A DNA stretch of 64,000 nt from Candidatus Moraniibacteriota bacterium. GTDB lineage: Bacteria; Patescibacteriota; Minisyncoccia; Moranbacterales; GCA-2747515. The stretch lies in contig JBBQZC010000003.1 of NCBI GenBank assembly GCA_038208115.1, positions 2,984 through 66,983 on the forward strand. Direction: 5' to 3'. A program made the translations under genes and the position numbers. The notes below the pieces were generated by a model. It did not search any database, was not told the origin of the DNA, and saw only the letters and a program-made list of their open reading frames with translations. Positions 29,182 through 61,561 of the stretch are shown in pieces (the first letter of the stretch is position 1; every line of letters starts with the position of its first letter).

Positions 29182-29192
29182 TTGTGATATTT

Positions 29193-29235
29193 AAAACTCA
29201 TCTATTATAATACATAGTCGATGAGTTTTATTTTT
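29193..29235 (+). terminator. rho-independent terminator
   Basis: AAAACTCATC...GATGAGTTTT followed by ATTTTT. Confidence 0.6.
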
Positions 29236-30040: not shown

Positions 30041-30104
30041 GTTTTAGTGTTTGCTATTTAGATAAATGATGATAAAGTGAAATATCCATCTTTATATAAA
30101 TATA

Positions 30105-42166: not shown

Positions 42167-42250
42167 GCCCAGGTGGCGGAATTGGTATACGCACTAGGTT
42201 GAGGGCCTAGACTCCTCTGGGGTGTGCGGGTTCAAGTCCCGCCCTGGGCA
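42167..42250 (+). tRNA. tRNA-Leu (anticodon GAG)
   Basis: Acceptor GCCCAGG/CCTGGGC, anticodon loop TTGAGGG, long variable arm, T-arm GCGGG-TTCAAGT-CCCGC. Confidence 0.7.
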
Positions 42251-42299
42251 CAAGTGAACTATTGGAATGATCTAATAAATGTAGTATAGTATAAAATAT

Positions 42300-42373
42300 G
42301 CACGCTTAGCTCAGCTGGTTAGAGCATCTCGTTTACACCGAGAGGGTCGGGGGTTCGAATCCCTCAGCGTGCA
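42300..42373 (+). tRNA. tRNA-Val (anticodon TAC)
   Basis: Acceptor GCACGCT/AGCGTGC, D-loop AGCTGGTTAGAGC, anticodon loop TTTACAC. Confidence 0.7.
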
Positions 42374-42402
42374 CATCATCTTTGATATAAACATAAAGAT
42401 GG

Positions 42403-42474
42403 GCCGAGGTAGCTCAGTGGTAGAGCAAAGGACTGAAAATCCTTGTGTCGAGAGTCCGATTCTCTCCCTCGGCA
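42403..42474 (+). tRNA. tRNA-Phe (anticodon GAA)
   Basis: Acceptor GCCGAGG/CCTCGGC, anticodon loop CTGAAAA. Confidence 0.7.
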
Positions 42475-42485
42475 CATATGATTGA

Positions 42486-42557
42486 GGGACTATAGCTCAG
42501 CGGTAGAGCGCGCGGCTCATAACCGCTTGGTCGCAGGTTCGAACCCTGCTAGTCCCA
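42486..42557 (+). tRNA. tRNA with CAT anticodon (elongator Met or lysidine-modified Ile2; G1-C72 is paired, so not the initiator)
   Basis: Acceptor GGGACTA/TAGTCCC, anticodon loop CTCATAA. Confidence 0.65.
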
Positions 42558-42657
42558 CTGATTGTAGTAATATGTAAAGTTAAAAGGACAAAGTTTATAA
42601 AAATAACCCAACAACTACACTTTATAAGCTTTCATCTTTACAAATTTTACATAGACT

Positions 42658-42733
42658 GCGAGTGTCGTATAGTGGTTATTACACCACCTTGCCAAGGTAG
42701 AAATGGCGGTTCGATTCCGCTCACTCGCTCCAA
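42658..42733 (+). tRNA. tRNA-Gly (anticodon GCC), CCA encoded
   Basis: Acceptor GCGAGTG/CACTCGC, anticodon loop TTGCCAA, T-loop TTCGATT, 3' TCCA. Confidence 0.65.
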
Positions 42734-42980: not shown

Positions 42981-44276
42981 TTGATAAAATATGTGAATAT
43001 GTTTGAACAAATGCCCATTCAAGAGAGCGTAGATAGAAAACAAAATAAATTAAAAAAAGAAATATCTTTTCCTCATGGAGAAAGTATTTTAAGATTATTT
43101 AGAGATAAATATAAGGATGAGTCAGAAAAGACGGAAATAATGGAAGATGTTCTCTATGAATTTTTTGAACAAGAATTGGCGAATATTGAAATTTATGAAT
43201 CGGAAAAATTTGGAGCATCATTTCCCTGGACAGTTATAAAAACAAAAGAATTGTTTAAAAGAATTGTTGAAAAAAATTCAAAGCAAAATGAATTAGAAAA
43301 AGAATCAGATAAATCGGCGGAAAGCGAAGATGTAGTAAAACAAGAATTTATTTTTAGCTCTGGTAGTATGGTGCAAAGCGGTTATCCTTTTACTTTTGTT
43401 GAGGAAGCAATGCATCAGGCAATAGTTTCCCTGAAGGGTGACCTGCTTGCTCTGCAAGAAGGAAGAGAAATAAAAGGACAAGAAATTTATACAATCGGCT
43501 TACCGACTAATGAACTCGGAAAGGTTACTTCTGAGTTTTCGGAAAGGTTAAAGTCAAATCCATTTGGCGTGATGGGTGAATTGCAAGCTGAATTTGTCCA
43601 GGCTCGTATTCCAAAAAATGAAGGTGGTGCGCAAAGATTAAATGTAAAGCTCTATGGTATTTCCACTGGAGCAAGTCTTGCAGCAGCAACAGGAGAGAAA
43701 TTATTGGCAGATGGAATTGTGTCTCAAGATATAGAAAATAAAGAAATAGGCATCCCTCGTCTTTCTGTTAGAATGGATTCGCCAGTTGGGTTGAGCGAAT
43801 CAACAATAAAAAACTGGCAAATACCATTGGGATATGTAGCTGAATTTGCATATCAAACATTCAAGGATCCCAAATTTAGGCTGGCTGATCCAAAATTCAT
43901 GAGTCAAGTTAAAGAAGTGTTAAGCAAAAGAGGAATAGAAAAAAACATGACAGATAGTGATAAACAAATGAAAACTGAATGTATTAGCGCAATTATTGGT
44001 AAATTGAAGAAAGGTGTCGAATTTGATAAAAGCCTTAAAGTTACTAAGGTTACAGGCATATTGGATCCTCTGACTTTTTTACTAAAAGAATACAAAGTTG
44101 AAAAAGAAAGGCAATCTGAAATAGTTGATGGCTTAGGTAAGAATATTTCTCCCAGATCCGAAGAAAATAGAAGAGAATTTATGATAAATCAAACACATAC
44201 GCCTGCTTTTTTTAGAGATAGTGAGCTGAAAAGATACTATGAAACAGCAAGTCTCGTGCAGGAATTAAGAAAATAA
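42981..44276 (+). CDS. hypothetical protein (431 aa), no recognisable domain
   Basis: Long ORF directly after the tRNA cluster; no motif identified. Confidence 0.5.
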   Translation: MIKYVNMFEQMPIQESVDRKQNKLKKEISFPHGESILRLFRDKYKDESEKTEIMEDVLYEFFEQELANIEIYESEKFGASFPWTVIKTKELFKRIVEKNSKQNELEKESDKSAESEDVVKQEFIFSSGSMVQSGYPFTFVEEAMHQAIVSLKGDLLALQEGREIKGQEIYTIGLPTNELGKVTSEFSERLKSNPFGVMGELQAEFVQARIPKNEGGAQRLNVKLYGISTGASLAAATGEKLLADGIVSQDIENKEIGIPRLSVRMDSPVGLSESTIKNWQIPLGYVAEFAYQTFKDPKFRLADPKFMSQVKEVLSKRGIEKNMTDSDKQMKTECISAIIGKLKKGVEFDKSLKVTKVTGILDPLTFLLKEYKVEKERQSEIVDGLGKNISPRSEENRREFMINQTHTPAFFRDSELKRYYETASLVQELRK

Positions 44277-45737: not shown

Positions 45738-46130
45738 TTATATACAACACTTAAAGCACTTACATCCATCTTTTTGTATCAAATCTTGAACATACTCAAT
45801 ACCATAGTCATACGTAAATTCCTCACCCTTTGTGATATCACGTATAGCATAGATCATAATGTGCTCATCATCTTCGATCACAGCCTCACAATTTGGATCA
45901 CAGGCGTGATTAATATAGCGAGCTGTATGGTTTCTCCCCTTACCATCCAGAACGGTCTCTGCGTTCAATATAAAAAGATATCGACCTCCGCGACGATCTG
46001 CCTCATCGTGCGTAATAGATTCACCGGTATATTCTATTACATGATTGCCTTTTGTGATATTTTGTTCGGCAAATAAACCCAGTCCTGCTGATGAACGCTT
46101 TATTGTATATTTTTTTGCACGTATGTCCAT
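45738..46130 (-). CDS. SET-domain protein (130 aa)
   Basis: RYINHACDPNC and EEFTYDY SET motifs; C-terminal post-SET CKCFKCC. Confidence 0.7.
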   Translation of the reverse strand: MDIRAKKYTIKRSSAGLGLFAEQNITKGNHVIEYTGESITHDEADRRGGRYLFILNAETVLDGKGRNHTARYINHACDPNCEAVIEDDEHIMIYAIRDITKGEEFTYDYGIEYVQDLIQKDGCKCFKCCI

Positions 46131-46283: not shown

Positions 46284-47249
46284 TTAGACAATAAACTTCT
46301 GAAGATGTTTCACAAAAGCCTTAAATCTGCCCGGATAATCAACCTCATACTTATAAACCTGTCCTTCATATGGTATTTCAATTTCTTTTGCATGAAGAAA
46401 AAATGTGTGTGTTTCATACTCCTTGGCAAAATTTAACCTCAATCGTTTTTCCGTCTTGGTATAGTAGCGCTGATCACCAACGAGAGGATGCCCGATATGA
46501 GCCATGTGTACGCGAATTTGATGTGTGCGACCGGTTTGCGGTCGTGCTTCAACTAGAGAAATGGTGTTTTCACCATTTATATCATATTCTTCCAATTGCG
46601 TATATTCTGTCTGCGCTTCCTTGGAATCACCCGTATATTTCCCAAAAGCGATTTTTTGTTTTGTGTACGACGTCGCACGAGCAATTGGTGCGTCTATTAC
46701 GCCGGTTTTTTCTTCAAATGCGCCAAAAACAAGCGTGTGATAGGTTTTTTTGACTTTTCTATCTTGAAAAGCTTTCTTAAGTATATCAAAACCTTTTTGA
46801 TTTTTAGCAACCACCATAAGACCTGTTGTATCCTTATCCAACCGATGTACAATACCTGGACGCTCTTCATCATCTCCCACACCCTCTATCTCAGGATACA
46901 TTGCCAAAAGCACATTGACGAGTGTTTTATCTCTTTCTCTGTGGCTCGGATGGACCTGTAACCCTCTTTGCTTATTGATTACGATAAAATCAGGTTGATG
47001 ATCAATAATTTCTAGCGATATATTGCGATTAGGGAGAATTTTCTTGGATTTATCTACAAATTCCCCCATAAATACATGCTCACCTCCTTTTAATGTATAG
47101 CTGGGTTTGGCAGTTTTGCCATTAATTTCTACAACACCTGACCTGATCATACGTATTATGTCTCCCCGCGTTTTATCTTCTCCAAGAGATTCTACGAGAT
47201 ATTTATCTATTCTTTTTCCTTTTTCTTCGTCTGCGATGATAAATTCCAT
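46284..47249 (-). CDS. rluD: RluA/RluD-family 23S rRNA pseudouridine synthase with an N-terminal S4 domain
   Basis: Catalytic motif HRLDKDTTGLMVVAKN; S4-like N-terminus; start taken at the internal Met (MEFIIADEE). Confidence 0.8.
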   Translation of the reverse strand: MEFIIADEEKGKRIDKYLVESLGEDKTRGDIIRMIRSGVVEINGKTAKPSYTLKGGEHVFMGEFVDKSKKILPNRNISLEIIDHQPDFIVINKQRGLQVHPSHRERDKTLVNVLLAMYPEIEGVGDDEERPGIVHRLDKDTTGLMVVAKNQKGFDILKKAFQDRKVKKTYHTLVFGAFEEKTGVIDAPIARATSYTKQKIAFGKYTGDSKEAQTEYTQLEEYDINGENTISLVEARPQTGRTHQIRVHMAHIGHPLVGDQRYYTKTEKRLRLNFAKEYETHTFFLHAKEIEIPYEGQVYKYEVDYPGRFKAFVKHLQKFIV

Positions 47250-47439
47250 ATGGGTAACAATATAATATTTAAGGTAAATTCTATCATACACCATTTTAAC
47301 AAATAACTCAACTATTCACTATAAAATAATTATAACGACCACAATTTATAATATAAATAAATGTGAATAATTATTCACCTATTATGCACAATTATCTATT
47401 TCGTCTTTAAATCTGTGTATAACTTGTGTAAAGCGTGTA

Positions 47440-47670
47440 TAATTACTTGTGGATATTACTGTATAATTTCGTGGATAAAAAATCTCTTTTGTGGATAAGT
47501 ATCTCACTTTATACCTCAAAAAAGTTATCCACATTCACACGCACATATACACATAGTTACCCACAGTCACTATTTTCATCTCTATAAAAAGGTTTTCAGG
47601 AATATCCACTTATACATATACTAATAGTAATAATTAATTATATAAATATAATATAATATAAATAGACTAC
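47440..47670. promoter_or_regulatory. DnaA-box cluster plus AT-rich unwinding-element-like tract (candidate oriC or DnaA-regulated region)
   Basis: Perfect boxes TGTGGATAA (47490-47498) and TTATCCACA (47525-47533). Near-matches TGTGGATAT (47449), CGTGGATAA (47470), TTACCCACA (47557). Then TAATTAATTATATAAATATAATATAATATAAATAG. Confidence 0.55.
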
Positions 47671-47812
47671 AAATTCATCTACATTCAGATATCAAAGCAT
47701 CAAATAAATACTTTCAAAACAATTTGTAAATAGTAAATTCATAAATAGAATTATTTTTTGTCTTTCTTACAAATTATGATATAATGCATTTGTTAAATTT
47801 GTATACAAAAAA

Positions 47813-49804
47813 GTGTTCAAAAAAAATATACATAAAAATTGTTATAGAATACTCGTTTTTAGTTTTTTCCTTTTTTCTTTTATTCAAATAAATTTTTTAG
47901 TAAATAATGATTTTGTGAATTATTGCTATGCTGTAAATCCAGAACCGAAAACTGAAAATTTAAACGAAGGTGCAAATGTTGAAATAAGTGGTAATCCATT
48001 TTTTCAAGTAGTTGCAGGTATTTTAATAGGTATAATAAGATTATTTGCTATTTTTATTACAACTGGTGTTGCATTGATTCAATTAACCTTGAAACCGGAA
48101 TTTCAAACAATTATAGCAAATGATGCTATATTAGCTGGATGGAAAACAGTGCGAGATATCTTGAATATATTTTTTATATTTTTTCTCCTCTACTCCGCAT
48201 TTTGCACAGTATTTCAAATATCAAAATATCATATTAAAAGTACATGGGTGATGATTGTAGTGATGGCTCTTTTGGTGAATTTTTCATGGCCAGTTACACG
48301 GGTAATGATCGATGTATCAAATGTTGCGATGCAATATATTATTGGAGATAAAGGTATAGATACAAGTAATAGTCTTTTTGCTAAATTTGGTAAAGAATCA
48401 TCAGTACTACATCTTGTCATTTCAACAAGTGGGACTGATTCGAGTGATGAAAATATAGTTCAAATTAAAAATAAAGAAGGAGTTTTTACTAGTCTGCTTA
48501 TGGGAATTGTTGCGAGCGCATTATTTGCGTTTACGATTTTTGCTGTAGCATTTATGCTTGTGGTACGTGTTATTGCTTTGGCTATTTATCTTGTATTTGC
48601 ATCAGTAGGCTATACACTTGCAGCTTTTCCTGGGACATCATCTTATTCTAGTAAATGGTGGGATGGGTTTATGAAACAGTTGATAGTAGGTCCAATTCTC
48701 CTTTTTTCATTACTTTTAGCAGCTAATGTGCTTGATGCTTTAAAAAAATCCAGTTTTACAAGTGCTATGAGTGAGGCGGCAAAAGCAAATGGTGGAATGG
48801 CTAGTTTATTGCAATATTTAGTTGCGATTTTATTGATTTGGTCAAGTATTATTGCATCTCAAGAAGTAGGTGCACAGGGTTCGAGTATGGCTTTGGGTTT
48901 TGCACATAAAATGAGAGGAAAAGTTCAAGGAGTAGCAAAGGGTATTGGTAAAACTGCAGATTATGGAATGGCGAGAATGACGAATAGAATGGCGGGGTCA
49001 CAAAATAAGGGTGCGGCATTTATAGGAAAAGGCATGGGATTAGTGAGAAGTGTGCCAGATAGAGTAGGAAATATGAAGAAGGAATCAAAGGAAAACTATG
49101 CAAAAGCATTAGAAACATCCAAAGCACATGGATTAGCTATAGGTGGTGATAAACTAGGTGGAGATAAAAATGCTGTTAATGCAAATATAGGAAAGCAAAT
49201 TGAAGAAAAGAAGAAAAAATTAAAAGAAACACCGTTGAATACAGCAACAAATATTGAGGCAGAGGCAAAAGCACAGCTCCTTATTGATAAAAAAGATGGT
49301 ATTAAGGAAGATGATATTAAAAACCTCATCAAATCCCTTGATAGCCTTGATGAAGACACAAAGAAGGCTGCCTTAAAAAAAGCAGGAAATGAAGGTTATG
49401 GCCATCTCACAGCGGCATATGAAGCAAATAAAGAGCATGAAGCAGAAGTTAAAAGTGAAAATCAAAGAAGAAACTTCCATAGTATGAGTGCATTAACACC
49501 TGCTGAAATACAAACAATGCGTGAAAATAAGATGAATGAGAAAATGAAATCTACATATGAAAATATGGACGGCAAAACAATGGCAAAACAAAAAATATTT
49601 ACTACTTATAAGAAATCTAATATTAGTTCACCTGATCATGATGCGACGGAACGTGCATATGTAGTAGCAGACGAGCATATTAAACGTACACTAAGAGGAA
49701 GAAACTTATTAGATTTTAATTCTGCTGCAGGAGCAGCAAATAGAAATAATGATATAAGAGAAGCTGCTAATAACTATAGCTTACTACATGGAGGGACGCC
49801 TTAA
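47813..49804 (+). CDS. polytopic membrane protein, VirB6/TrbL-like (putative T4SS inner-membrane component) with a long hydrophilic C-terminal tail
   Basis: At least 6 TM segments in the first roughly 350 aa, then a Lys/Glu-rich coiled tail; sits in a cluster with a VirB4 ATPase. Confidence 0.45.
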   Translation: MFKKNIHKNCYRILVFSFFLFSFIQINFLVNNDFVNYCYAVNPEPKTENLNEGANVEISGNPFFQVVAGILIGIIRLFAIFITTGVALIQLTLKPEFQTIIANDAILAGWKTVRDILNIFFIFFLLYSAFCTVFQISKYHIKSTWVMIVVMALLVNFSWPVTRVMIDVSNVAMQYIIGDKGIDTSNSLFAKFGKESSVLHLVISTSGTDSSDENIVQIKNKEGVFTSLLMGIVASALFAFTIFAVAFMLVVRVIALAIYLVFASVGYTLAAFPGTSSYSSKWWDGFMKQLIVGPILLFSLLLAANVLDALKKSSFTSAMSEAAKANGGMASLLQYLVAILLIWSSIIASQEVGAQGSSMALGFAHKMRGKVQGVAKGIGKTADYGMARMTNRMAGSQNKGAAFIGKGMGLVRSVPDRVGNMKKESKENYAKALETSKAHGLAIGGDKLGGDKNAVNANIGKQIEEKKKKLKETPLNTATNIEAEAKAQLLIDKKDGIKEDDIKNLIKSLDSLDEDTKKAALKKAGNEGYGHLTAAYEANKEHEAEVKSENQRRNFHSMSALTPAEIQTMRENKMNEKMKSTYENMDGKTMAKQKIFTTYKKSNISSPDHDATERAYVVADEHIKRTLRGRNLLDFNSAAGAANRNNDIREAANNYSLLHGGTP

Positions 49805-49822
49805 AATATGATCTATTAATAT

Positions 49823-51232
49823 ATGAAAGACGAACAAAAATATTATCCCATGTTAGCGGGTATTAGTGAAAAAGACATATTTAGTGAAGAAAGTTCACTA
49901 ATGTGGGAAAAATTTAACACAATGCCGATCAAAATACAAAAAATATTGAAATCTGATGAACTTACCGAATTTGTCTATAATATTGAAAAAAGATATCATT
50001 TTTCTGATAAACAAACAGAGGATTTTTCAGTTTTAGTAAGAAAATATTTCTTTAGGGAAATATCAGAAAATGAATTTGCACAAAAAGTATCCCAAATGTG
50101 TCATTCTACGACAGATGACGCGATTAAACTTTTTCGTGTAATTTTAGCAATTGAACCAAAAGAAGAATTAGAAGAAAACAAAGACGTTTCTTTAAAAAGA
50201 AATACGGTGCAAATTTCGTTTACCAACGCACTTGCTAATTATCCAAAGGTTAAGGAGCAGTTTATCACTGAACAACCAATCATCGCTAAACCATTTCTCC
50301 AACCACTCAAACCAACGCTCAAAAACTGGATTATGGTGTATGAAAAAATACTTGACGTCAGCCGTCACAATACAATTGAACGCGGTGATTTCGTATTTCG
50401 TGCAGAAGCAACAAATGGACTTACACACTCTGAACGTGCTGATCTGGCACACATATTACGTGCACGAGATGAAGATGGTCAGATAACGATAGATCGAGAT
50501 ACAAGTGAAATTGTCTTTGAGGAGCAAGGAGATGATATGCAAAACAAACCAGTTAATGAATCGCGAAATATTGTATCTGGAAGACAATCTATAATCGTAC
50601 CAAGGGCAAATTTGCAACAAAAAATGACACAAGTAAGTAATGATTCAGAAAATATACCACAGAGAAATACAATGTCACAAACAGTATATAGTCAAAATTC
50701 AGTATCAAAAAGAATGGATATGCCTGCGCAACAAAAAGTAGCACAGAAACCAGTGGAAAGAAAAAATTTTGGTATAATTAATGAGTCATCGTCAATAAGT
50801 ACGTCAAAAAAAGATCCAAATGAAAAGCAAAATCCAGTTTTTACTTCAGTCCAGGATGAAATCATCAAAAACCGTATGGAGATGCAGAAAAAAAATCAAC
50901 CTACACAAGTGATGACCGTAGAAGAACCACAAGTAGTATCACAGGATGTCCGACCAATCGGTACTCCAATACAAGGTATATTAGTTCATAAAAAAGAAGA
51001 TGTACAATCGGCGACAAATGCTCAGCCAATATCAAGTGTAACTACACCAACAAAAAAAGTTATTGATGAAAAACCATTATCGTTTGTAGCTGGAGAAATT
51101 AATTTTAGTTCAAATCATACATTACCATCAGAGATGCCACAAAAAAAACTATCAGCAAATTATCTCAACATATCACCTATTGGTGTAACGCATGTGATGA
51201 AAAAAAACAAAAAACAGAACAAATCAATGTAA
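49823..51232 (+). CDS. hypothetical soluble protein (469 aa) with a low-complexity C-terminus
   Basis: ORF only. Confidence 0.45.
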   Translation: MKDEQKYYPMLAGISEKDIFSEESSLMWEKFNTMPIKIQKILKSDELTEFVYNIEKRYHFSDKQTEDFSVLVRKYFFREISENEFAQKVSQMCHSTTDDAIKLFRVILAIEPKEELEENKDVSLKRNTVQISFTNALANYPKVKEQFITEQPIIAKPFLQPLKPTLKNWIMVYEKILDVSRHNTIERGDFVFRAEATNGLTHSERADLAHILRARDEDGQITIDRDTSEIVFEEQGDDMQNKPVNESRNIVSGRQSIIVPRANLQQKMTQVSNDSENIPQRNTMSQTVYSQNSVSKRMDMPAQQKVAQKPVERKNFGIINESSSISTSKKDPNEKQNPVFTSVQDEIIKNRMEMQKKNQPTQVMTVEEPQVVSQDVRPIGTPIQGILVHKKEDVQSATNAQPISSVTTPTKKVIDEKPLSFVAGEINFSSNHTLPSEMPQKKLSANYLNISPIGVTHVMKKNKKQNKSM

Positions 51233-51417
51233 AATTTATGACAGCAAGATATTATTATATCCACCTAATCTATCTAAAAGATGAGGAATTCTTATTTTCA
51301 TATAAAAAAGGAAAATGAATAAAGAAGCATCTGTTAGATTTTTTTATTTTATCAAGTGCTTTATAAAAAATTGATTTAATGGTATGATAAAAAAGAAGAA
51401 AAAATAAAATAAAAATT

Positions 51418-51879
51418 ATGCAGATTGTACCACAATATATTGATGTTGAAGATAAAATAGCAGGACCGCTCACGTGGAAACATATTGGTTGGATGTTTGC
51501 TGGTGGAGCAGTTTTATTGTTTGCATTCACTTTATTAGATACTACAACTTTTATTATTGCAGCAGTGCCGATTACTATATTTACGGGAGCGCTTATTTTT
51601 TATCGACCGAGTGGGGTGCCATTGGTACAATTCATCGGATTTGGATTTACATATCTTTTTCGTCCAAAAGTGTATACGTGGCAACGTGAAGACACGTTAT
51701 ACACACAGAAAAAAAAGAACAAAGTAATGCATATTGAGACTACGAGTGAAAAAAAACACTTAGGCGAGAATGATATGCATGCAATTGCACAAATGCTTGA
51801 TACACGTGGAACGGAGCGCAGTGATCGTCTTCAACAGTTGATCAGAGAAAGTAAAAGAGAATCACAACATAAAAAATAA
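51418..51879 (+). CDS. small membrane protein, VirB3/PrgI/TcpE-like
   Basis: Two-TM topology (WMFAGGAVLLFAFTLL, FIIAAVPITIFTGALIFY) immediately upstream of VirB4, as in Gram-positive-type T4SS. Confidence 0.4.
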   Translation: MQIVPQYIDVEDKIAGPLTWKHIGWMFAGGAVLLFAFTLLDTTTFIIAAVPITIFTGALIFYRPSGVPLVQFIGFGFTYLFRPKVYTWQREDTLYTQKKKNKVMHIETTSEKKHLGENDMHAIAQMLDTRGTERSDRLQQLIRESKRESQHKK

Positions 51880-51891
51880 TTTGATATTGAT

Positions 51892-52575
51892 ATGGACTTA
51901 TTAGGATCAACTTCACAAAATAGTGGATTAAGCACACTGAAGTATGTGGATATTAAAACAATTAAAGATGGAGTAGTTGTGCTTAAAAACGGTTCTTTAA
52001 GAGCTGTTTTACTTGTGTCATCGATTAATTTTGATCTTAAATCATCTGATGAACAAATAGCTATTGTTGGCGCATATCAAAACTTCCTTAATTCACTAGA
52101 TTTTCCTATTCAAATATTGGTTAGTTCACGTAAATTGAATATTAGTGCATATCTAGATATGCTTAAAGAGAAGTCGAGAGAACAGCGCAATGAATTGTTG
52201 AAAATTCAAATTATTGAATATAGGGAATTTATTCAAAAACTCACAGAAGTGACAAATATTATGAGTAAATATTTTTATCTTGTCGTACCATTTGCACCAG
52301 TGGAAAATGAATCAGAAGGAATTCTCGGTAAAATCTCACATGTATTTAATCCTGAGGAAAATATTACAGAACATGAGGAGTTATTTGAAACGTACAAAAA
52401 TCAACTATGGCAACGAGTAGATCATGTTGCGGCAGCTCTGGGAGGAACAGGATTACATTTCACAGCGTTGAATACGGAAGAGCTCATTGAAATGTATTAT
52501 GGTATGTATAATCCATCAGAATATTCGCAGACGACAATAAAGAATGTTATAGAATCAGATGTGGAACAAATGTAA
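51892..52575 (+). CDS. VirB4/TraC-family ATPase, N-terminal domain (separate ORF)
   Basis: VirB4-like N-terminus (DIKTIKDGVVVLKNGSLRAVLLVS); ends with TAA 24 nt before the ATPase-domain ORF. Confidence 0.55.
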   Translation: MDLLGSTSQNSGLSTLKYVDIKTIKDGVVVLKNGSLRAVLLVSSINFDLKSSDEQIAIVGAYQNFLNSLDFPIQILVSSRKLNISAYLDMLKEKSREQRNELLKIQIIEYREFIQKLTEVTNIMSKYFYLVVPFAPVENESEGILGKISHVFNPEENITEHEELFETYKNQLWQRVDHVAAALGGTGLHFTALNTEELIEMYYGMYNPSEYSQTTIKNVIESDVEQM

Positions 52576-52599
52576 AAATAATTATTTGTAGGGATTGAT

Positions 52600-54411
52600 A
52601 TGTTATTCAACAAAAAAGCAAATACACAACAAAATAATGAGACTGTAGAGAATGATAAATTTTATCAAGAAGGTGTTGCTACGGTTCGAGGACTTATTGC
52701 TCCAAGCGCATTACAAATTCAAGCAGATCATTTACAAATTGGCGATGTGATGGCAACAACAGTTTTTGTGATGGCATACCCTCGCTTTTTAAGTGATAGT
52801 TGGTTCGCACCAATCATTAATATTGATTTTCCGATGGATATTTCAATGTTTATTCATCCTGAAGATTCACGCGATGTGCTTAAAACACTGAGAAAAAGTG
52901 CAGCGCATGTGCATTCACAGATTGATATTGAGTCGCGTAGTGGAAAGGTAACTGATCCAATGTTGGAAACGGCTATAGAAAACATTGAGACTCTTCGTGT
53001 GAGTTTGCAACAAGGAACAGAGAGATTTTTCCGTTTTGGCTTGTATATTACACTTTATGCTGATACAAAAGCAGTGTTGCAAAAAAGAAAAAGTGAGATT
53101 GAGGCAATTTTAGAAGCCCAGCTAATTTATTGTAAACCTGCTATATTACGAATGGAACATGGTTTTGCGTCGACAATTCCACTTGGGAATGATCGACTGA
53201 ACGTAGGAACAAACCTCAATACAGCACCACTCTCGACAACCTTTCCTTTTGTGTCATCCAGCCTGTCATCCAACGAAGGAATTTTATATGGAATTAATCG
53301 TCATAACAATAGTCTGATATTATTTGATCGGTTCAATATGGAAAATGCTAATATGGTGGTTTTTGCAAAATCAGGTGGCGGAAAAAGCTATTTTGTAAAA
53401 TTGGAAATATTACGATCCCTAATGATTGGCGTTAATGTAATAGTGATTGATCCAGAAAGTGAATATAAACATCTCTGTCAAACTGTCGGCGGTACATATA
53501 TTCAAATATCACTTGGATCAAATGCACACATCAATCCATTTGAACTACCAGCAATACCTAAGGACGAAAAGCAAGTTGATGTATTTAGAAACACAATAGC
53601 GAGCTTGATCGGATTGATGCATATCATGCTGGGTAGTGTAACAGCGGAAGAAGATACGGTGCTCGAACGTGCCATTCGTGAAGCCTATGCAGTGCGCGAT
53701 ATCACAGAGGATAGTCATTTTGGAGGTATACCACATTCAGGATATCCGACAATGGCAGATCTCTATGAGGTACTGCGATCAATGGATGGTGGTGATTCAT
53801 TAGGTAAGAGACTATCGAAATATACAGAGGGTATTTTTTCTGGATTTCTTAATAATCCAACGAATATTGAGGTAAATAACCAGATGATTGTATTTAATAT
53901 TCGAGATTTGGAAGAGGAATTGCGACCAATTGCGATGTATATGGTTTTGCAGTTTATCTGGAATGAGATGCGTACAAATATGACACGCAGAATTGTAGCT
54001 GTGGATGAGGCGTGGGTCATGATGCAAAATGATGATGCGGCAGCCTTTTTATTTGGTATTGCAAAAAGATGTCGTAAATATTATACTGGCCTCACAACGA
54101 TCACACAGGACGTAAGTGATTTTATGACAAGTCGCTATGGTAGACCAATTGTGACCAATTCATCTCTACAACTCCTTCTCCGTCAATCACCAGCCTCTGT
54201 GGATGTGATTGCGGAAACATTTTACCTGACAGATCATGAGAGATTTCTTCTGCTTGAAAGTAATGTGGGAGAGGGTATTTTATTTGCAGGACCTAAGCAT
54301 GCAGCTATCAAAATCATATCTTCATACGCAGAAGATCAAATCATTACTTCTGATCCGAGACAGCTTGCTGAAATAGAGAAGGCAAAGGAAGAAATAGATA
54401 ATGAAAAATAA
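52600..54411 (+). CDS. VirB4/TrbE/CagE-family type IV secretion ATPase, C-terminal NTPase domain
   Basis: Walker A VVFAKSGGGKSYF and Walker B IVAVDEAW, the DEAW motif characteristic of VirB4. Confidence 0.75.
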   Translation: MLFNKKANTQQNNETVENDKFYQEGVATVRGLIAPSALQIQADHLQIGDVMATTVFVMAYPRFLSDSWFAPIINIDFPMDISMFIHPEDSRDVLKTLRKSAAHVHSQIDIESRSGKVTDPMLETAIENIETLRVSLQQGTERFFRFGLYITLYADTKAVLQKRKSEIEAILEAQLIYCKPAILRMEHGFASTIPLGNDRLNVGTNLNTAPLSTTFPFVSSSLSSNEGILYGINRHNNSLILFDRFNMENANMVVFAKSGGGKSYFVKLEILRSLMIGVNVIVIDPESEYKHLCQTVGGTYIQISLGSNAHINPFELPAIPKDEKQVDVFRNTIASLIGLMHIMLGSVTAEEDTVLERAIREAYAVRDITEDSHFGGIPHSGYPTMADLYEVLRSMDGGDSLGKRLSKYTEGIFSGFLNNPTNIEVNNQMIVFNIRDLEEELRPIAMYMVLQFIWNEMRTNMTRRIVAVDEAWVMMQNDDAAAFLFGIAKRCRKYYTGLTTITQDVSDFMTSRYGRPIVTNSSLQLLLRQSPASVDVIAETFYLTDHERFLLLESNVGEGILFAGPKHAAIKIISSYAEDQIITSDPRQLAEIEKAKEEIDNEK

Positions 54412-54687
54412 TATAACAAAAGAGGTTTGTAAAAACCTCTTTTTTAGTGTGTGATATTGCATGTGAAGTTGTATGTGTTTTGTAATAATAACAATCATAT
54501 ATGAAAAATGATAAAAATATTTGGGAATTAACTCCTAATCTCGTTATTACAAATTTTGTAATTGATTCATTGTCAAAAAGACATTCACAAGAAATACATT
54601 TAAGTAGTGTTTATTCACTGTATATCGAAATGTATTTATTAAAAAATGAAACAATCATAAAGAAACCTCGCAATTGTTAGTAGTTAC

Positions 54688-55470
54688 GTGTATAATATAG
54701 AAAGAAATAATGAAAATATGAGCACATCAAGAGCATCAACAAATCCAGAAAACATTGCCATCTATGCGGAGAGAGCGCGCAATCTTCAGCGTGCTCGTCA
54801 GAAGAAAAATATCACGCAAGAGACGCAGTCACAGAAATATACAGAACAATTGAGTAAACAAATTCAAAGAAGCAGATATTTTCAAAATAGTGATACTCAG
54901 AATTTTGCAGATAAACCAGGTGGCGAAAGTAGTGATAGTCAGAAAAAAAATAACATACGATTAATTCAAAAAGATTTACATGGCGAAATACAGGATGATG
55001 AATTACATCAAATAACAGATGATGTGTCAGATGTTTTTACAAGTTCAAAAATAATGCTTCCAGTAAAAATAGCTCAACTAGCTGTGCATTCTCGCGCTGC
55101 ATTGAAAGATTATACTAGCAAATGGTGGATTGTTGCGTTTGCATTTGCTATTTTTAAAGACCTCGCACTCGATCCAACAATCCATCAAATACCAGCATTA
55201 GGATGGTTTGTTGCATGCTGTTTTACGATTGGATTTATCATTTTTTTATTTGGAGGTGGATTTTTTAGGAAGTTAGGCAAAAAGATGATTGCAAAAATCA
55301 TTTTTTCGATTATTATTGATATGATCCCATTTGTAAACATACTATTTCCTGGAACAACAATAGCTGTATTAGTACGATGGGATGGGTCAAAAAAAGATGC
55401 AAAAAAAGCAGAACAAAATGTGAAAAGAATTAGAGAAAAGTATGCAGAATATGATACAATGAATGAATAA
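54688..55470 (+). CDS. membrane protein (260 aa; hydrophilic N-terminus, 3 TM segments)
   Basis: ORF in the T4SS-like cluster. Confidence 0.45.
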   Translation: MYNIERNNENMSTSRASTNPENIAIYAERARNLQRARQKKNITQETQSQKYTEQLSKQIQRSRYFQNSDTQNFADKPGGESSDSQKKNNIRLIQKDLHGEIQDDELHQITDDVSDVFTSSKIMLPVKIAQLAVHSRAALKDYTSKWWIVAFAFAIFKDLALDPTIHQIPALGWFVACCFTIGFIIFLFGGGFFRKLGKKMIAKIIFSIIIDMIPFVNILFPGTTIAVLVRWDGSKKDAKKAEQNVKRIREKYAEYDTMNE

Positions 55471-55508
55471 GATGTGATATAATAATACATATAAAAAAAA
55501 TAGTAAAT

Positions 55509-56150
55509 ATGAATCAAGAAATTATAAAACAATTAACACATTTTTGCTTTGCGCTTGCTTGTGTTGCTTTATTTTTTTTCTTCCCTGTGTCAGAATATCG
55601 ATTTGAAGTTTTAGTTAGCGTCGTAACTTTTTTACTGGTGATGCCAGTAATTTATACAAAGGTCGTTTTGCATAAAGATTTGAGGGAGATGGGTTTTTGG
55701 TCTTTTCGGATAGAAAAAAAAGAAATTTTTATGTTGACGGCCTCAGTAATAATTGGTGGTTTATTGGGCTTTGTGATGATTGCGATGAAGTGGGGTGTGG
55801 CTTCATATGTTGGGATGTTACCTGGCGCTGTTTTATACAACTTTGGAGGATTTGTCGTCTATGAGTTAGTTTTTGTTTCAGCAATCCTCTTTCTTTTTAC
55901 TGTGATTGTGTGGGGATTTGTGTTTAATTGCACATGGCATGATCATCGTATTGCGTTCATATCTGGAAGTGTCTTATTTATTGTTCTATTATATAGCTTT
56001 TATCAAAATATATTTATCATCATTCCCTTGCTCAGTCCTGTAGTTATATTATACAAAAAACGATTTACTTATAACATTATCTATCTTTTTTTAGCATTCT
56101 TTCTAATAAGTCTTATTATAGATACGATGATCGTGCGGTCATTATCATAA
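55509..56150 (+). CDS. polytopic membrane protein (213 aa)
   Basis: About 6 predicted TM segments. Confidence 0.45.
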   Translation: MNQEIIKQLTHFCFALACVALFFFFPVSEYRFEVLVSVVTFLLVMPVIYTKVVLHKDLREMGFWSFRIEKKEIFMLTASVIIGGLLGFVMIAMKWGVASYVGMLPGAVLYNFGGFVVYELVFVSAILFLFTVIVWGFVFNCTWHDHRIAFISGSVLFIVLLYSFYQNIFIIIPLLSPVVILYKKRFTYNIIYLFLAFFLISLIIDTMIVRSLS

Positions 56151-56199
56151 TATAATTTAGACAATCGAGATGGAATTTTTAATAATAAAAACTGTGGCC

Positions 56200-59154
56200 A
56201 TGAAAAAAATATTTCAAGCAACTGCAATAATTCAAATCATTTTTTTTATAATAAATCCTGTAACAGCATACGCTGTTACAAAAGAAGAGGTGGCTGATCC
56301 TGTGGGATCTTCCATTAAATCTAATGGATCCTCTGCTGTTTCAGGTCAAGTGCGCAAAGGTATAAATAGTTTCCTCGAGGACGATCTCAATATGAATGTA
56401 GAGGAGAGTTTAAAGCCCCTTACAGAGGGCATAAATAGTGTTGATCGCAAAGGAAAAATACCTCGTACAACTATAAGATTTTCTACACCAAACCCAAAAC
56501 CGGGCGATATGCTTACAGCAAGTGCAGAAGTGGAAGGGATCGCAAATGCTGATAAAGCATACTACACATGGTTTTTGAAAAGAAGTAGCGATGAATCATA
56601 TGATCCACCACAGCGTATGCATGAGAATGCCGTAAAAGCACAAGCATCAATCTATTATGATCCAGAAATGCGTGATCAGAGATTTAATCAAGGCATGCCA
56701 ACAGAAGGAGATGAGGATACTTTCGATGCGCCATTGGGTGGTAAAGATACTGGATCAGAAGATAAATACTGTTATATTTATGATACAAAAGACGGAAAAC
56801 AATATGAGATAGTCGGCGGAGATAGTTCTCCCGCAAATTTGGCTTGTGATGAGGGGTACATTCCGCGATGTATGATAGATAATAATGCGTTACAATGTCC
56901 TCTGATAATTGAGCCAATCACGGGAACAACGTCCAGCTCGTCATCAGGTTCAGGCTCAGGCTCGAGTACAAATACTCAAGCAGATACTAGTTCTTCATCA
57001 TCTTCATCTGCAAGTACGACTCTCAGTGGTGGTGGTGGTGCACGTAATCAAGTCCGCACACGCTGTCTCGAAACAGAAGAAACACCATACTGTGATGAAA
57101 ATTCAGGCACACTACAATGTGGGGAATCAGGACAATTATACAGTTATGAAGGTGAAATTACTATATCCACACCTTTTTGTGTACGCGTTATTGATACACG
57201 TTTGTGGTTGGATCCAAATGTGAACGGATGTAATATGGCAACAGATGAAAATGGTGAGTATATTTATCAAGGAGCTGGCTGTTTAAGTGAGCCTAATGCA
57301 GAAAACGTCAAAATACCAGCTAATAAATGTGATATTGCATCACAAGAAGAAACAGTCTGTAGTGAGGATGCAGGTGTATTTAGCAGAGAAGACACAAAAG
57401 ACATGGGTCCTGCTGTTGAAGAGCGATATGGTCTCAATCCAGCAGATGATCGTACTACACCTCTCGCAGATAATGATGGGCAACTTATTGCAGGTGTAAA
57501 TCAACAACAGTTCACGTGGCAGTATGAAGAAGGTGATGAAATCACCGTTGTTGTAGAAGGACAGGGTTCAGAGTCTACAAAACATGAAAATTCATCGTAT
57601 CAAACGGTATTTGCAATGATAGAACCCGGTTGTCAGGAGATTTTGGAAGAAGACTCAGCGTCAAAATCTTCATACGAAGAAGCTGTAAAGGAAAAAGTAG
57701 TTACACACTTAACGGCAATTGTAAATCCTGTGGAGTGTATTTCTCCAAAAATGTACGTCAAGCCAGGCACAAGTGAGTACGACTCTCTCAAGGTAGACGT
57801 GTCACAAGGCTATAATGAGGAAGCATCAGTTGCAAGTGGATTGGGGCAGCCAATGCACGTCACGGCATCAGCAGGGCAGACGCAGGGCGGATCCATATCT
57901 TCTCCAACACATCTGTATTATGATTGGACAGTAACGTGTAATAATGGTAGTGAAGTGATAGATATCACGGATAAATTGGAGGGTCTTTCACAAACGTCAG
58001 GCATGAATATTCCAGCATTGGATTTTGTAGCCGATTTTCCTGATGGAACAGCAGATGAAAATGGTAATCCAACAGAAAACTGTTTTAATCCAACAGACGG
58101 ATCTAGTAAAGTAGAGGTGACAGCAAAAATCAATGAGCCCCGCAAAGGAGGGGGAAGCAATTTTGGCAAATCAACACAGATTTTCACTATATACAATGCA
58201 GTTGAGAGTCAACTGGAGGCATATAAAACAACTGTAAATGCGGATGGCAAATATAGCCCTACAGCCACCTCGATTTGCATAGATGGTATCGACAAAACAT
58301 TTTGTCGCGTTATGAACAACGAGGTGATTGCGCTGAGGGCTAAGGAAAGCAAAGATACAGGAGATTATGCAGAGCCAGGAATGCTATCATGGCAGGTAAA
58401 TGATAAGACATATGTGTGTGATACAAACATATCAGAAGATTGCATAAATAGTGTTGGCACATCAAACACAAATACGGATACGATTCTTGTGCCAATGAAT
58501 GGACGTGATGGAGATTTTATTACAGTTGCTGCTCAAGTCAATGAGGTAGATATTGATAAAAATGAATCAAAACAACTGATGCGTGTATTTCGGGTCACAG
58601 AGCCATCTGTGACAATCGAGCCAGTAACGAATGTTGTAAAAAAGGTGCTAGGCACATATACGAATCTCGATGAAAAAAAATTTCTAGATGAGTCAAATAA
58701 TGTTTTTATTGCACAAAAAGGAAAAGAAATAACACTAAAGGCAATTCTGGAGCCAAGTTTTCTCAATACAGCGAACACAGGACCAAAGTTGACATATGAA
58801 TGGTTGGTAGACGGTCAAATATATGATACGGATAATGAAATCACATTTATTCCTGAAAGTGAAACGACAATAACAGTAAAAGTGGCACAAGCACTTGAAA
58901 ATGTGGACCGCAAAGCATTAAAAGAAGTTTTTAATGCAGGTATGAAAGACACACAGGTGCAATCATATAAAAAGACTGTAGAGATTGAGTTTAGTAAAGA
59001 AGACCTTATTGCGAATTCGGGAGTAACTGGTTTTTTTGCCACTGCATCACATAACGCACCAGAATATTTGATTTTTATCTTGAAGATGACGATGCTTATG
59101 GGTATTATGCTACTCATTCCATCACTCGTGCTCAGCGTAGGAAAAAGTGCATAA
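56200..59154 (+). CDS. large (about 985 aa) Cys-rich secreted or surface protein with a signal peptide, Ser/Gly/Thr linker and C-terminal TM anchor
   Basis: Signal peptide MKKIFQATAIIQIIFFIINPVTAYA; SSSSSGSGSGSS linker; many Cys; C-terminal hydrophobic segment IFILKMTMLMGIMLLIPSLVL. Confidence 0.55.
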   Translation: MKKIFQATAIIQIIFFIINPVTAYAVTKEEVADPVGSSIKSNGSSAVSGQVRKGINSFLEDDLNMNVEESLKPLTEGINSVDRKGKIPRTTIRFSTPNPKPGDMLTASAEVEGIANADKAYYTWFLKRSSDESYDPPQRMHENAVKAQASIYYDPEMRDQRFNQGMPTEGDEDTFDAPLGGKDTGSEDKYCYIYDTKDGKQYEIVGGDSSPANLACDEGYIPRCMIDNNALQCPLIIEPITGTTSSSSSGSGSGSSTNTQADTSSSSSSSASTTLSGGGGARNQVRTRCLETEETPYCDENSGTLQCGESGQLYSYEGEITISTPFCVRVIDTRLWLDPNVNGCNMATDENGEYIYQGAGCLSEPNAENVKIPANKCDIASQEETVCSEDAGVFSREDTKDMGPAVEERYGLNPADDRTTPLADNDGQLIAGVNQQQFTWQYEEGDEITVVVEGQGSESTKHENSSYQTVFAMIEPGCQEILEEDSASKSSYEEAVKEKVVTHLTAIVNPVECISPKMYVKPGTSEYDSLKVDVSQGYNEEASVASGLGQPMHVTASAGQTQGGSISSPTHLYYDWTVTCNNGSEVIDITDKLEGLSQTSGMNIPALDFVADFPDGTADENGNPTENCFNPTDGSSKVEVTAKINEPRKGGGSNFGKSTQIFTIYNAVESQLEAYKTTVNADGKYSPTATSICIDGIDKTFCRVMNNEVIALRAKESKDTGDYAEPGMLSWQVNDKTYVCDTNISEDCINSVGTSNTNTDTILVPMNGRDGDFITVAAQVNEVDIDKNESKQLMRVFRVTEPSVTIEPVTNVVKKVLGTYTNLDEKKFLDESNNVFIAQKGKEITLKAILEPSFLNTANTGPKLTYEWLVDGQIYDTDNEITFIPESETTITVKVAQALENVDRKALKEVFNAGMKDTQVQSYKKTVEIEFSKEDLIANSGVTGFFATASHNAPEYLIFILKMTMLMGIMLLIPSLVLSVGKSA

Positions 59155-59195
59155 AGTATGATATACTAAGTGGAGAGAATAATAAAAATAAAGTC

Positions 59196-60437
59196 ATGAA
59201 GATGAAGAAAAATCTAAGAGTGTTTATCTTTGCTTTTTTAATATGCATATGTTTTACGATAGCTTCACAAAAGGTTTTTGCTGCTGATGGTTATCAATTA
59301 TTAGAGAGTATGCCAGGCGTAGGTGATGCAAAGAGTGCAGCTCCTCAATTTCCTGTGTATATTTCAAAAATGTATAATTTTTTTGTTGCTTTTGTAATCA
59401 TAGCAGCTCTTCTCATGGTGACTATTGGTGGTTTTTCGTACATTCTTTCAGCGGGAAATCAAGCCCAGGCTGGTACAGCAAAAAAAATAATCACTGATGC
59501 TCTGATAGGTCTTGTAGTAGTATTTATATCATGGCTGGTATTAAACACTATCAACCCTGATTTACTAAATACAAATCCAAATATGAGCTCATTACAATCA
59601 GGAGCTAAAAGTACTGATAAAGCCGGTGACGATACGACGATTAACAATACAAGTACAGTTACGCATGATGGTAAAAATTATGCAACAAATGAGGAATGTA
59701 AAGCTCAAGCAAATATATCAAGTGATTGCACGCCATTGCAAAATTCATATGATAATTCTCAACATTATGTGCAGGATCCCGCAACTGGTAAGTGGCATGA
59801 AGCAACTGATCAGGAGTGTCTCAATAATCCATCAAACTGTAAATTAGGTAGTAATATAATAGCTGATGATTTTAATACACCTAAAACGTCAGGGAGTGTA
59901 GAAAGTGATTTGAGAAATGGTAATATCGTTCGTGCCGATCACAACAATACAAATGGAGATCAGCCAAGTGTGGAAGGATTGCCACCAGTTACGGTAAAGG
60001 CAGCAACGGATTTGATGGCAGAAACTGGATGTACAACTGCAGATACATGTCCAAAAATTGTCGGTGGGACAGAAAAATATGGAGACGGAGCAAATCGTAT
60101 AGATGTAGATGAAAAAGCGACATTAGGTGGTCTTGGTGACTCGGATTTTCTCAATAGTGTACAAGACAATGCAGTCGAAACTGGTACGAGCACCAAAAAA
60201 AACGGAGCAAATACACTAAATATAACAACATATGTATATCCAGAAGGACACGCTCTTGCAGGCCAAAGAGTTGATTGGGTCAAAGAAACTGATGCTAGTG
60301 GCTCTAAGGTCAGAGAATATAACACAATATATGCGACAAAAGAAAACCCACCTGCAAAGCCAGTTACACCAGAGGTGCCTGAGTATAACTATAATGAAAT
60401 AACGCTACAGATAAGAAAACATATAATTAACGTTTAA
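59196..60437 (+). CDS. pilin-like protein with VirB2/TrbC-like topology (signal peptide plus two hydrophobic helices) and an unusually long C-terminal extension
   Basis: Signal peptide ...VFAADG, then FFVAFVIIAALLMVTIGGFSYILSAGNQAQAGTAKKIITDALIGLVVVFISWLVLNTI, then about 300 aa of hydrophilic extension. Confidence 0.4.
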   Translation: MKMKKNLRVFIFAFLICICFTIASQKVFAADGYQLLESMPGVGDAKSAAPQFPVYISKMYNFFVAFVIIAALLMVTIGGFSYILSAGNQAQAGTAKKIITDALIGLVVVFISWLVLNTINPDLLNTNPNMSSLQSGAKSTDKAGDDTTINNTSTVTHDGKNYATNEECKAQANISSDCTPLQNSYDNSQHYVQDPATGKWHEATDQECLNNPSNCKLGSNIIADDFNTPKTSGSVESDLRNGNIVRADHNNTNGDQPSVEGLPPVTVKAATDLMAETGCTTADTCPKIVGGTEKYGDGANRIDVDEKATLGGLGDSDFLNSVQDNAVETGTSTKKNGANTLNITTYVYPEGHALAGQRVDWVKETDASGSKVREYNTIYATKENPPAKPVTPEVPEYNYNEITLQIRKHIINV

Positions 60438-60439
60438 CT

Positions 60440-61561
60440 ATGATCATCAAAAAAGTCTTTATAATTTCAACTATCTTGCTTCTTGTCATTGTTGTTTTTT
60501 TTGGTATTTATGTTATTGCATTTAAACCAGAAGCTACACAGAAGGTTGTTGAAAATATTGGTAGTAGCGTAGATATTGCTGATGTTGTATCAGAGAAAAT
60601 CACAAATATTACATCAGATTCAGTTGTTTCTGCGGCACTAGGACCAAATAACGATACAATTCAATATGTAGATGCTATAAGTGGACGTGTATGGACAATG
60701 ACACTCCGGGGATCAAATAAGGAGGCGCGGGCTATTGAAGCAAAGGGTGTGCCACTAAGTGTGAAGTGGTCTCAAAAAGGAGATTCAGCCATAATGCAAT
60801 ATGCAGACAAAAGCACCTATGTGAATAATTTTGTAACAAATGGACAAAATCGTTTGCGAGATGGAATGGACGATGTTGTGTGGGCAAATATGGATGGCAA
60901 AATCCTTTATAAATACTATGATGAAAAAAACAAAGAGCGATCTCTTAACATTGCAAATGCAGATGGCACAAATTGGAAAAAAATTGCTGAGCTGCCTTTC
61001 CGAGAAACAATGTTTGCACAGGTGCCACTATCGATATTTGTCGCATATTGGCCAAAAGCACAGTCTAGTGTATCTACAGAGTTATTTACTGCTAACACTA
61101 TTAGTGAGGGAGAAAGTAAAAAAATTTTTAGCGGTGTCTTTGGCGCTGACTTTCTTTTTGCACCAGATGGAAAGACTGTGCTTATTAGTTCTGTTAAGAG
61201 TGATAAAAAGTCTATTTCACTTGCAGTTATGGATAGTAATGGTCAAAATTATAATGACCTCCTCGTTCCAACATTTGTGCAAAAAGTCGTATGGTCAAAA
61301 GATGGAAAATCAATATACTACGCACAACCAACAGAAATACCGACTTCCAGTGTATTGCCAGAAGATTATCAGAATGGAAATTTTACAACCAAAGACACCT
61401 TTTATAAAATGGATATAACGACAGGCAAAAAACAGCGTATAATCGATTTGCCGGAAATAAAAGACAAAATGGACGCATATAATCTATTTTTATCACCAAT
61501 GGAAGATACTCTCTATTTTATTAACAAAGAGGACCATTTGTTATATCGCATTACTATGTAA
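60440..61561 (+). CDS. membrane-anchored protein with TolB-like beta-propeller repeats
   Basis: N-terminal TM segment; repeated DGK/S..Y hydrophobic-blade motifs (DGKILYKY, DGKTVLISS, DGKSIYYAQ). Confidence 0.45.
   Translation: MIIKKVFIISTILLLVIVVFFGIYVIAFKPEATQKVVENIGSSVDIADVVSEKITNITSDSVVSAALGPNNDTIQYVDAISGRVWTMTLRGSNKEARAIEAKGVPLSVKWSQKGDSAIMQYADKSTYVNNFVTNGQNRLRDGMDDVVWANMDGKILYKYYDEKNKERSLNIANADGTNWKKIAELPFRETMFAQVPLSIFVAYWPKAQSSVSTELFTANTISEGESKKIFSGVFGADFLFAPDGKTVLISSVKSDKKSISLAVMDSNGQNYNDLLVPTFVQKVVWSKDGKSIYYAQPTEIPTSSVLPEDYQNGNFTTKDTFYKMDITTGKKQRIIDLPEIKDKMDAYNLFLSPMEDTLYFINKEDHLLYRITM

Follow-up and report, generated by a model that had tools for sequence, protein, structure and literature searches.

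The locus studied here lies in a 64-kb window, by which we mean the whole stretch of 64,000 nucleotides that was analyzed, from a Candidatus Moraniibacteriota bacterium (Paceibacteria, CPR). An rluD-type gene and a T4SS-like operon diverge from an intergenic spacer rich in DnaA boxes. These neighbors had been correctly named in a first-pass annotation, which gave the spacer as 510 bp; it measures 518 bp. The features are as follows, in window coordinates, with box mismatches counted against the consensus TTATCCACA.

18547–19281, no strand: seven perfect parS-like palindromes TGTTCCACGTGGAACA, 28–29 kb left of the candidate origin and not part of it
46284–47294, minus strand: rluD-type pseudouridine synthase gene (PseudoU_synth_2 and S4 domains), left neighbor of the candidate origin
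47295–47812, no strand: candidate oriC spacer between the divergent rluD gene and T4SS-like operon, 518 bp, GC 22.8%
47329–47357, minus strand: promoter-like site for rluD (TTTATA-17-TATAAT, a consensus match only), reading away from the candidate origin and abutting the box at 47362
47362–47498, minus strand: left box array, mostly TGTGGATAA on the plus strand and mostly spaced by 20–22 bp, with boxes at 47362 (one mismatch), 47414 (one), 47434 (two), 47448 (ATATCCACA, one), 47470 (TTATCCACG, one), and 47490 (perfect)
47371 and 47382, plus strand: two boxes inside the left array, with two mismatches and one mismatch, respectively
47525–47565, to 47618 at its widest, plus strand: right box array in the TTATCCACA orientation, toward the A/T tract, with boxes at 47525 (perfect), 47545 (two mismatches), and 47557 (TTACCCACA, one)
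47602–47618, plus strand: two co-oriented weak boxes, ATATCCACT (47602) and TTATACATA (47610), with two mismatches each and a one-base overlap
47610–47669, no strand: proposed DNA unwinding element, containing a 37-bp pure A/T run
47621–47635, minus strand: DnaA-trio-like repeats, CTA ATA GTA ATA ATT on the plus strand and 3'-GAT TAT CAT TAT TAA-5' on the bottom strand
47758–47785, plus strand: promoter-like site for the T4SS-like operon (TTGTCT-16-TATAAT with a TG extension, a consensus match only), reading away from the candidate origin
47813–61561, plus strand: T4SS-like cluster encoding proteins of 663 and 469 aa, PrgI, a TrsD-like protein, VirB4, further proteins, and a pilin; right neighbor of the candidate origin

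DnaA boxes and the putative unwinding module

The spacer between rluD and the T4SS-like operon contains the sole DnaA-box cluster of the window. Eight boxes with at most one mismatch, two of them perfect, lie within 204 bp (47362–47565). When two mismatches are allowed, 13 boxes are found in 300 bp. The runner-up 300-bp bin of the window has three. Two of the three perfect boxes of the window are in the spacer. The five boxes noticed in the first-pass annotation (two perfect and three with one mismatch) are all present, but the cluster is larger than had been claimed. An oriC is expected to carry at least three DnaA boxes with a mean spacing below 100 bp (quoted in PMC7561715). The cluster falls within this definition, and its density is unique in the window. 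An Rfam search of the candidate region identified no RNA family.

We propose that the pair of weak boxes at 47602–47618 is the double-strand anchor of an unwinding module. The trio-like repeats begin 10 bp past the box at 47602 and 2 bp past the box at 47610, and all five have a central A on the bottom strand. The A/T run that follows (47628–47664) is the longest in the window. No other duplex in the 64 kb is as unstable as the proposed unwinding element (47610–47669), whether computed over 30, 45, or 60 bp; over 45 bp, it reaches −37.0 kcal/mol against a window mean of −55.4 ± 4.6. The pure AT tract had been predicted to be about 45 bp long; the tract is there, but this length is reached only when CTAATAGTAATAA, a segment containing G and C, is counted in. 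As in known origins, the box cluster is thus adjoined by an unstable AT-rich element. The T4SS-like operon starts about 150 bp from it.

In the basal unwinding system, two co-oriented boxes are located beside DnaA-trios, whose central adenine is captured by the DnaA oligomer. The trios, 3'-NAN-5', lie at most 16 bp from a box, with a peak of spacer lengths at 10–13 bp, and 3'-GAT-5' is favored as the box-proximal trio (PMC8287927, PMC10721633). The same arrangement is found in the window, with co-oriented boxes, a 10-bp spacer from the better box, and 3'-GAT-5' as the first trio. A narrower definition requires a GC cluster ahead of the trios and the trio consensus 3'-[G/A]A[T/A]-5' (quoted in PMC7561715). 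The first trio fits this consensus, but three to four of the five have T or C, and not the preferred G or A, at the first position. No clear GC cluster precedes the trios in the window, where the spacer is TA/C; distant relatives have CCC or GCC.

The relaxed definition 3'-NAN-5' is not discriminating in this AT-rich window (26 sites versus 14 expected). We therefore used a stricter one, requiring five or more NTA that start no more than 16 bp after a box with up to two mismatches. This pattern occurs at one site in the window, for 0.05 expected.

Conservation of the spacer and strand compositional skew

A VirB4 protein scan, with one genome per GTDB species, retrieved 77 loci totaling 1.15 Mb. 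The closest ones, whose VirB4 is 82–87% identical, are named Candidatus Moraniibacteriota. Among them, L064 is the complete chromosome CP175956.1 (1,286,331 bp) of isolate MKparc2, in which the box cluster is located at about 496.2–496.5 kb; a literature search on this isolate name gave no match. Several GTDB representative MAGs with a Patescibacteria-type locus have records titled Micavibrio, Bdellovibrionales, Pseudobdellovibrionaceae, or Gammaproteobacteria (L002, L005, L010, L018, L032, and L068). Mis-binning or mis-labelling is the probable reason.

The order SET, rluD, box cluster, T4SS is kept in five species-level genomes (L002, L005, L006, L007, and L064). Their best 300 bp contain four to nine boxes with at most one mismatch, of which up to five are perfect. 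Among these close relatives, RluD is about 60% and the first T4SS protein about 40% identical. Despite this divergence, the spacers can be aligned with about a dozen box positions preserved, including those of both arrays. The trios form the most conserved block of the alignment, within the near-invariant sequence WTATCCAC-TTATACATA-YA-CTAATAGTAATAATA-ATTATATATA; in L007, the box pair equivalent to 47602–47618 is AAATTCAC/ATATCCACA. A metagenome scan with the core motif identified 14 contigs, about half of which repeat the rluD–T4SS context. Conservation with aligned boxes, as expected of an oriC, therefore extends over five species-level genomes and metagenome contigs. The window encodes two SET-domain (lysine methyltransferase-like) proteins (45738–46130 and 23022–23537), in what is a small genome; one of the two genes is the conserved left-hand neighbor of rluD at this locus in all close relatives.

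The raw GC skew shows only a broad minimum at 33–41 kb and a dip at 46–48 kb, and was dropped as decisive evidence because the minimum is too broad. We therefore compared G with C at third codon positions (GC3 skew), stratified by gene strand and always read on the plus strand regardless of the coding strand. On this strand, G/(G+C) at third positions increases from 0.437 on the left to 0.62 on the right. A maximum likelihood fit of a single change point places the switch at 46.9–48.25 kb (LLR 64), and the cumulative GC3 skew over the 64-kb window has its minimum at 46911. Left of 47.3 kb, nearly all genes, on either coding strand, are C-rich on the plus strand. Right of 47.8 kb, all genes are G-rich, including two minus-strand genes at 61.6–64 kb. 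The skew changes from −0.15 to +0.23 for minus-strand genes alone (P = 1.9e-6) and from −0.11 to +0.24 for plus-strand genes alone (P = 7.9e-22). As the flip is independent of gene strand, it corresponds to a replication-type asymmetry and not to a coding-strand effect. Its sign, from negative to positive, is that of an origin.

The same negative-to-positive flip is observed at the same box cluster in L064, L002, L005, and L007. For the minus-strand genes of CP175956.1, the skew is −0.36 left of the cluster and +0.42 right of it (P = 1.3e-10). These measurements are local, covering 64 kb in the window and 22 kb in the relatives. A skew minimum elsewhere had been named beforehand as the observation that would speak against an oriC; the local GC3 switch falls at the spacer, in the window as in the four relatives.

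Genes at 22226–24399 and 42981–44276 oppose the local GC3 skew (+0.06 to +0.32, with negative neighbors). The second one lies right after a cluster of five tRNAs (42167–42732) and has no family match. These genes may be recent insertions or inversions. Such local exceptions (at 22.2–24.4 and 43.0–44.3 kb), together with a skew view limited to 64 kb (22 kb in the relatives), would fit a rearrangement breakpoint, that is, an inversion next to which the box cluster lies by coincidence. We give almost no credence to this explanation: an origin is a far more parsimonious account than a breakpoint that five species-level lineages share and that always falls at the conserved box/trio/AT module.

According to the GC3 skew, the T4SS-like cluster is transcribed co-directionally with the rightward fork. 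In the 28 kb to the left, 19 of the 25 protein genes are on the plus strand and would be head-on to the leftward fork if the spacer is an origin, which is atypical.

Two other sites of the window were considered as origins and rejected: a 1.3-kb region around the parS array, with one perfect box and the second least stable tract, and a mini-cluster of three boxes at 29.2 kb. Skew switch, box cluster, and trio module are missing at both. The parS array had been reported about 28 kb away, and its seven perfect copies were indeed recovered. It lies within a 1.3-kb spacer (18202–19500) between nrdD, on the minus strand, and tRNA-Arg/rbfA, on the plus strand, which also houses the second least stable A/T tract of the window (18711–18755). 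The position of the array is consistent with a partition domain close to the origin; no gene for ParA or ParB was recognized in the window. The three DnaA-box-like sites of the mini-cluster (29294, 29305, and 29487) are in a 920-bp spacer (29182–30104), in which a relatively GC-rich segment (about 29740–29990) could be a structured RNA, with no Rfam match at gathering thresholds. Finally, a 5.4-kb region (8750–14240) is devoid of ORFs longer than 142 aa and reaches a GC content of 0.48, compared with about 0.35 around it. It contains three to four copies of a 107-nt repeat and several minus-strand signatures of a ribosome-binding site plus ATG (AGGAGGTGA..ATGG), and neither an Rfam match nor conserved rRNA motifs were found in it. 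It looks like a cluster of small paralogous minus-strand genes.

Origins linked to dnaA in distant Paceibacteria

Pfam and tblastn with DnaA revealed neither dnaA nor dnaN in the 47 kb left of the spacer or in the 16 kb right of it, confirming the first-pass annotation on the missing dnaA. They were not found in the loci of the close relatives either (to 18 kb on the right in L064). The tblastn query was the Bacillus subtilis DnaA; as a positive control, it retrieved Paceibacteria DnaA at an E value of about 1e-110. The adjacency to dnaA/dnaN that is typical of, although not obligatory for, an oriC is thus missing here. Exact-protein look-ups with the genes at the edges of the window returned nothing or a 3.7-kb contig, and no dnaA. 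The dnaA of CP175956.1 was absent among the best 120 homologs of the L087 DnaA, the matches being Terrybacteria- or Parcubacteria-like. A 370-aa ORF (28069–29181) considered as a divergent DnaN showed no similarity to a Paceibacteria DnaN.

The situation is different in more distant Paceibacteria. In about 29 loci, tblastn located dnaA 4–6 kb downstream of VirB4 (e.g., L037, L043, L048, L054, L056, and L067). In these loci, the coding strand of the T4SS cluster is rich in C, and the skew changes sign close to dnaA/dnaN. The canonical origin is therefore at dnaA/dnaN in these genomes, with the T4SS to its left and head-on to replication, whereas the T4SS is co-directional with replication in the clade of the window. 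We found no mention of this difference in orientation in the available portion of the survey of Patescibacteria T4SS (PMC12102498).

The elements of the window recur, with their order unchanged, at the end of all 17 dnaA–dnaN spacers of distant relatives that we examined. Boxes in minus orientation come first and are followed by boxes in plus orientation, tandem boxes, repeats resembling CTAATA(A/G)TAGTAATAATA, and finally an A/T tract. The tandem boxes are, for instance, TTTTCCACATTTCCACA, followed by CTAATAATAGTAATAATA-like repeats and by an A/T tract abutting dnaN. In L087, the metagenome scan placed the core motif about 120 bp after dnaA, before dnaN. Over the 77 loci (1.15 Mb, both strands), all occurrences of the strict pattern are accounted for by the rluD–T4SS spacer of 5 loci and by the sequence just downstream of dnaA in 10 loci. 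The element of the window is therefore of the same type as the modules marking canonical origins in the class. Whereas distant Paceibacteria keep the arrangement T4SS ... dnaA – origin – dnaN, the origin module is detached from dnaA and dnaN in the clade of the window. In three distant relatives, an ORF located upstream of the T4SS cluster has at its 5' end a pair of oppositely oriented perfect DnaA boxes, 26–33 bp apart from start to start and far from the dnaA-linked origin (L056:2182–2216, L054:955–989, and L023:1462–1503).

These comparisons bear on the alternatives to a chromosomal origin. The spacer could be purely regulatory, with DnaA controlling the divergent promoters of rluD and the T4SS, while replication starts from a dnaA-linked origin elsewhere. 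Promoter-like sites do flank the cluster, the box at 47362 abuts the rluD −35 hexamer, and dnaA is absent from the window and from the loci of close relatives. In addition, the only perfect box of the window outside the spacer (18298) stands alone about 100 bp upstream of nrdD, which suggests that DnaA is also a regulator in this genome. However, mere regulation leaves unexplained the strand-independent skew flip at the same spot in five genomes, the presence of trio repeats and of the window's least stable duplex, and the identity of the module with that of the dnaA–dnaN spacers of relatives. We consider it highly unlikely.

Alternatively, the spacer might be an auxiliary DnaA locus acting in titration or reactivation, like datA or DARS, or it might be half of an origin that is split, the half for unwinding being beside dnaA elsewhere. 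Bipartite origins are described in Bacillus, Helicobacter, and Clostridioides (PMC7561715). Distant relatives have, besides the cluster downstream of dnaA, a single box upstream of this gene, and since the dnaA of the clade was not located, a second cluster beside it is possible. Nevertheless, the tandem boxes, trios, and A/T tract are found here, not boxes alone, and so is the skew switch, making an auxiliary role or a half origin very unlikely. To our knowledge, datA and DARS sites have no unwinding element and are not at a skew switch. The spacer departs from such sites, which have few boxes, in both of these respects.

The spacer could also serve an integrated conjugative element that carries the T4SS genes, as its origin of replication or of transfer. 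The spacer directly adjoins the VirB4/PrgI/TrsD/pilin cluster, and a tyrosine recombinase gene is located 7 kb to the left. Iterons with a rep gene, as for the oriV of a plasmid or ICE, or an oriT with a relaxase gene would then be expected, but no Rep or relaxase domain is encoded by the neighboring genes and no iterons other than the DnaA boxes are present. Moreover, the positive skew runs past the cluster into minus-strand housekeeping-type genes, and the same DNA module lies between dnaA and dnaN in relatives. PMC12102498 describes this T4SS as a chromosomal, relaxase-less system widespread in Patescibacteria. A mobile-element origin is therefore extremely unlikely.

We conclude that the spacer is very probably the DnaA-dependent chromosomal oriC of this Candidatus Moraniibacteriota bacterium. 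An oriC made of DnaA boxes and an unwinding element, with no dnaA beside it, was what the first-pass annotation had suggested; the skew switch and the conserved box/trio/AT module support it. DnaA binding, unwinding at the site, and actual initiation are inferred from the analogy with characterized origins.

Proposed initiation mechanism and comparison with known origins

By analogy with the basal unwinding system of B. subtilis, DnaA would fill about 12 boxes, in one orientation in the left array and in the other in the right array. The weak boxes at 47602–47618 would anchor a DnaA-ATP oligomer, which would extend onto the trios of the bottom strand. The adjoining 37-bp A/T tract would open, and the helicase would be loaded there. 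Forks would depart both ways, with the T4SS-like operon on the leading strand of the rightward fork. More speculatively, the flanking outward promoters may add negative supercoiling and aid opening, and may themselves be affected by DnaA occupancy.

One may further imagine that a rearrangement split the unwinding module from dnaA–dnaN and fused it directly to the region with the promoter of the T4SS-like operon. This operon would have changed from head-on to co-directional, and DnaA occupancy and origin firing would directly gate expression of the host-interaction machinery, which gene dosage would boost. The dnaA gene may then be hundreds of kilobases from the origin: 496 kb, or 39% of the chromosome, if CP175956.1 is rotated to start at dnaA. 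We regard this scenario as rather unlikely, although conceivable.

The locus provides a candidate origin at the sequence level for a Moraniibacteriota clade, a CPR lineage without a cultured member. It also indicates that the box/trio/AT-tract layout defined in Bacillus is recognizable in Paceibacteria and is a highly specific origin marker there. In this clade, an origin assigned by the position of dnaA would be misplaced, with consequences for the rotation of MAGs, peak-to-trough growth estimates, and replichore analyses. A defined origin could also help the design of vectors based on oriC, should these organisms prove tractable.

It is well known that an origin can be separate from dnaA, as in Escherichia coli, whose oriC is in the gidA–mioC region, tens of kilobases from dnaA. 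Like the E. coli oriC, the candidate origin is unlinked from dnaA and has two oppositely oriented box arrays, an unwinding element beyond the terminal TTATCCACA-oriented box, and flanking transcription directed outward on at least one side. Unlike it, the window shows no 13-mer repeats, GATC clusters, or evidence of IHF or Fis sites, and the neighboring genes are different.

The unwinding region of the B. subtilis oriC (incC) consists of DnaA-box#6/#7, DnaA-trios, and an AT-rich region (PMC6669920, PMC8287927, PMC10721633). In both cases, two co-oriented boxes lie right upstream of repeated trinucleotides that have adenine at their center on one strand, starting with 3'-GAT-5' at 10 bp from the better box; the A/T tract comes next, and extra boxes are present upstream. 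The polarity on the top strand, a TTATCCACA box and then CTA..., agrees with that of Clostridioides difficile, 5'-CACCTACTACTATTACTACTATGA-3'. In contrast to B. subtilis, the putative element of the window is not between dnaA and dnaN, has no clear GC cluster, and has mostly 3'-TAT/CAT-5' trios, not GAT.

The order of elements is shared with the dnaA–dnaN origins of other Paceibacteria (the Yanofskybacteria- and Terrybacteria-like L037, L048, L054, L067, and L087, among others), which also have a near-identical motif and CTAATAGTAATAATA-type repeats. A T4SS-like cluster is within a few kilobases of the origin in both. In these other Paceibacteria, however, the module comes after dnaA and before dnaN, with the T4SS to the left of the origin and head-on, whereas in the window it is between rluD and a co-directional T4SS operon and has more boxes.

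The first-pass annotation considered an oriC beside a secretion cluster unusual. This is not so: according to a recent survey (Microb Genom 2025, PMC12102498), T4SS genes near dnaA/dnaN, taken as an origin proxy, are common in Patescibacteria, as also seen in the approximately 29 loci mentioned above. The location of the T4SS at the origin has been given a gene-dosage rationale. The window adds a case to this observation, with a chromosomal, relaxase-less VirB4/PrgI/TrsD/pilin cluster at the origin like those of the survey. It differs from them in that the origin is recognized at the sequence level and not by the dnaA/dnaN proxy, both genes being absent nearby. What sets the clade of the window apart is the loss of dnaA and dnaN from the origin. 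What is new is modest and comprises, besides the sequence-level candidate origin and the specificity of the box/trio/AT layout in Paceibacteria, the observation that this clade lost the dnaA–origin–dnaN linkage, kept the T4SS at the origin, and reversed the orientation of the T4SS relative to replication.
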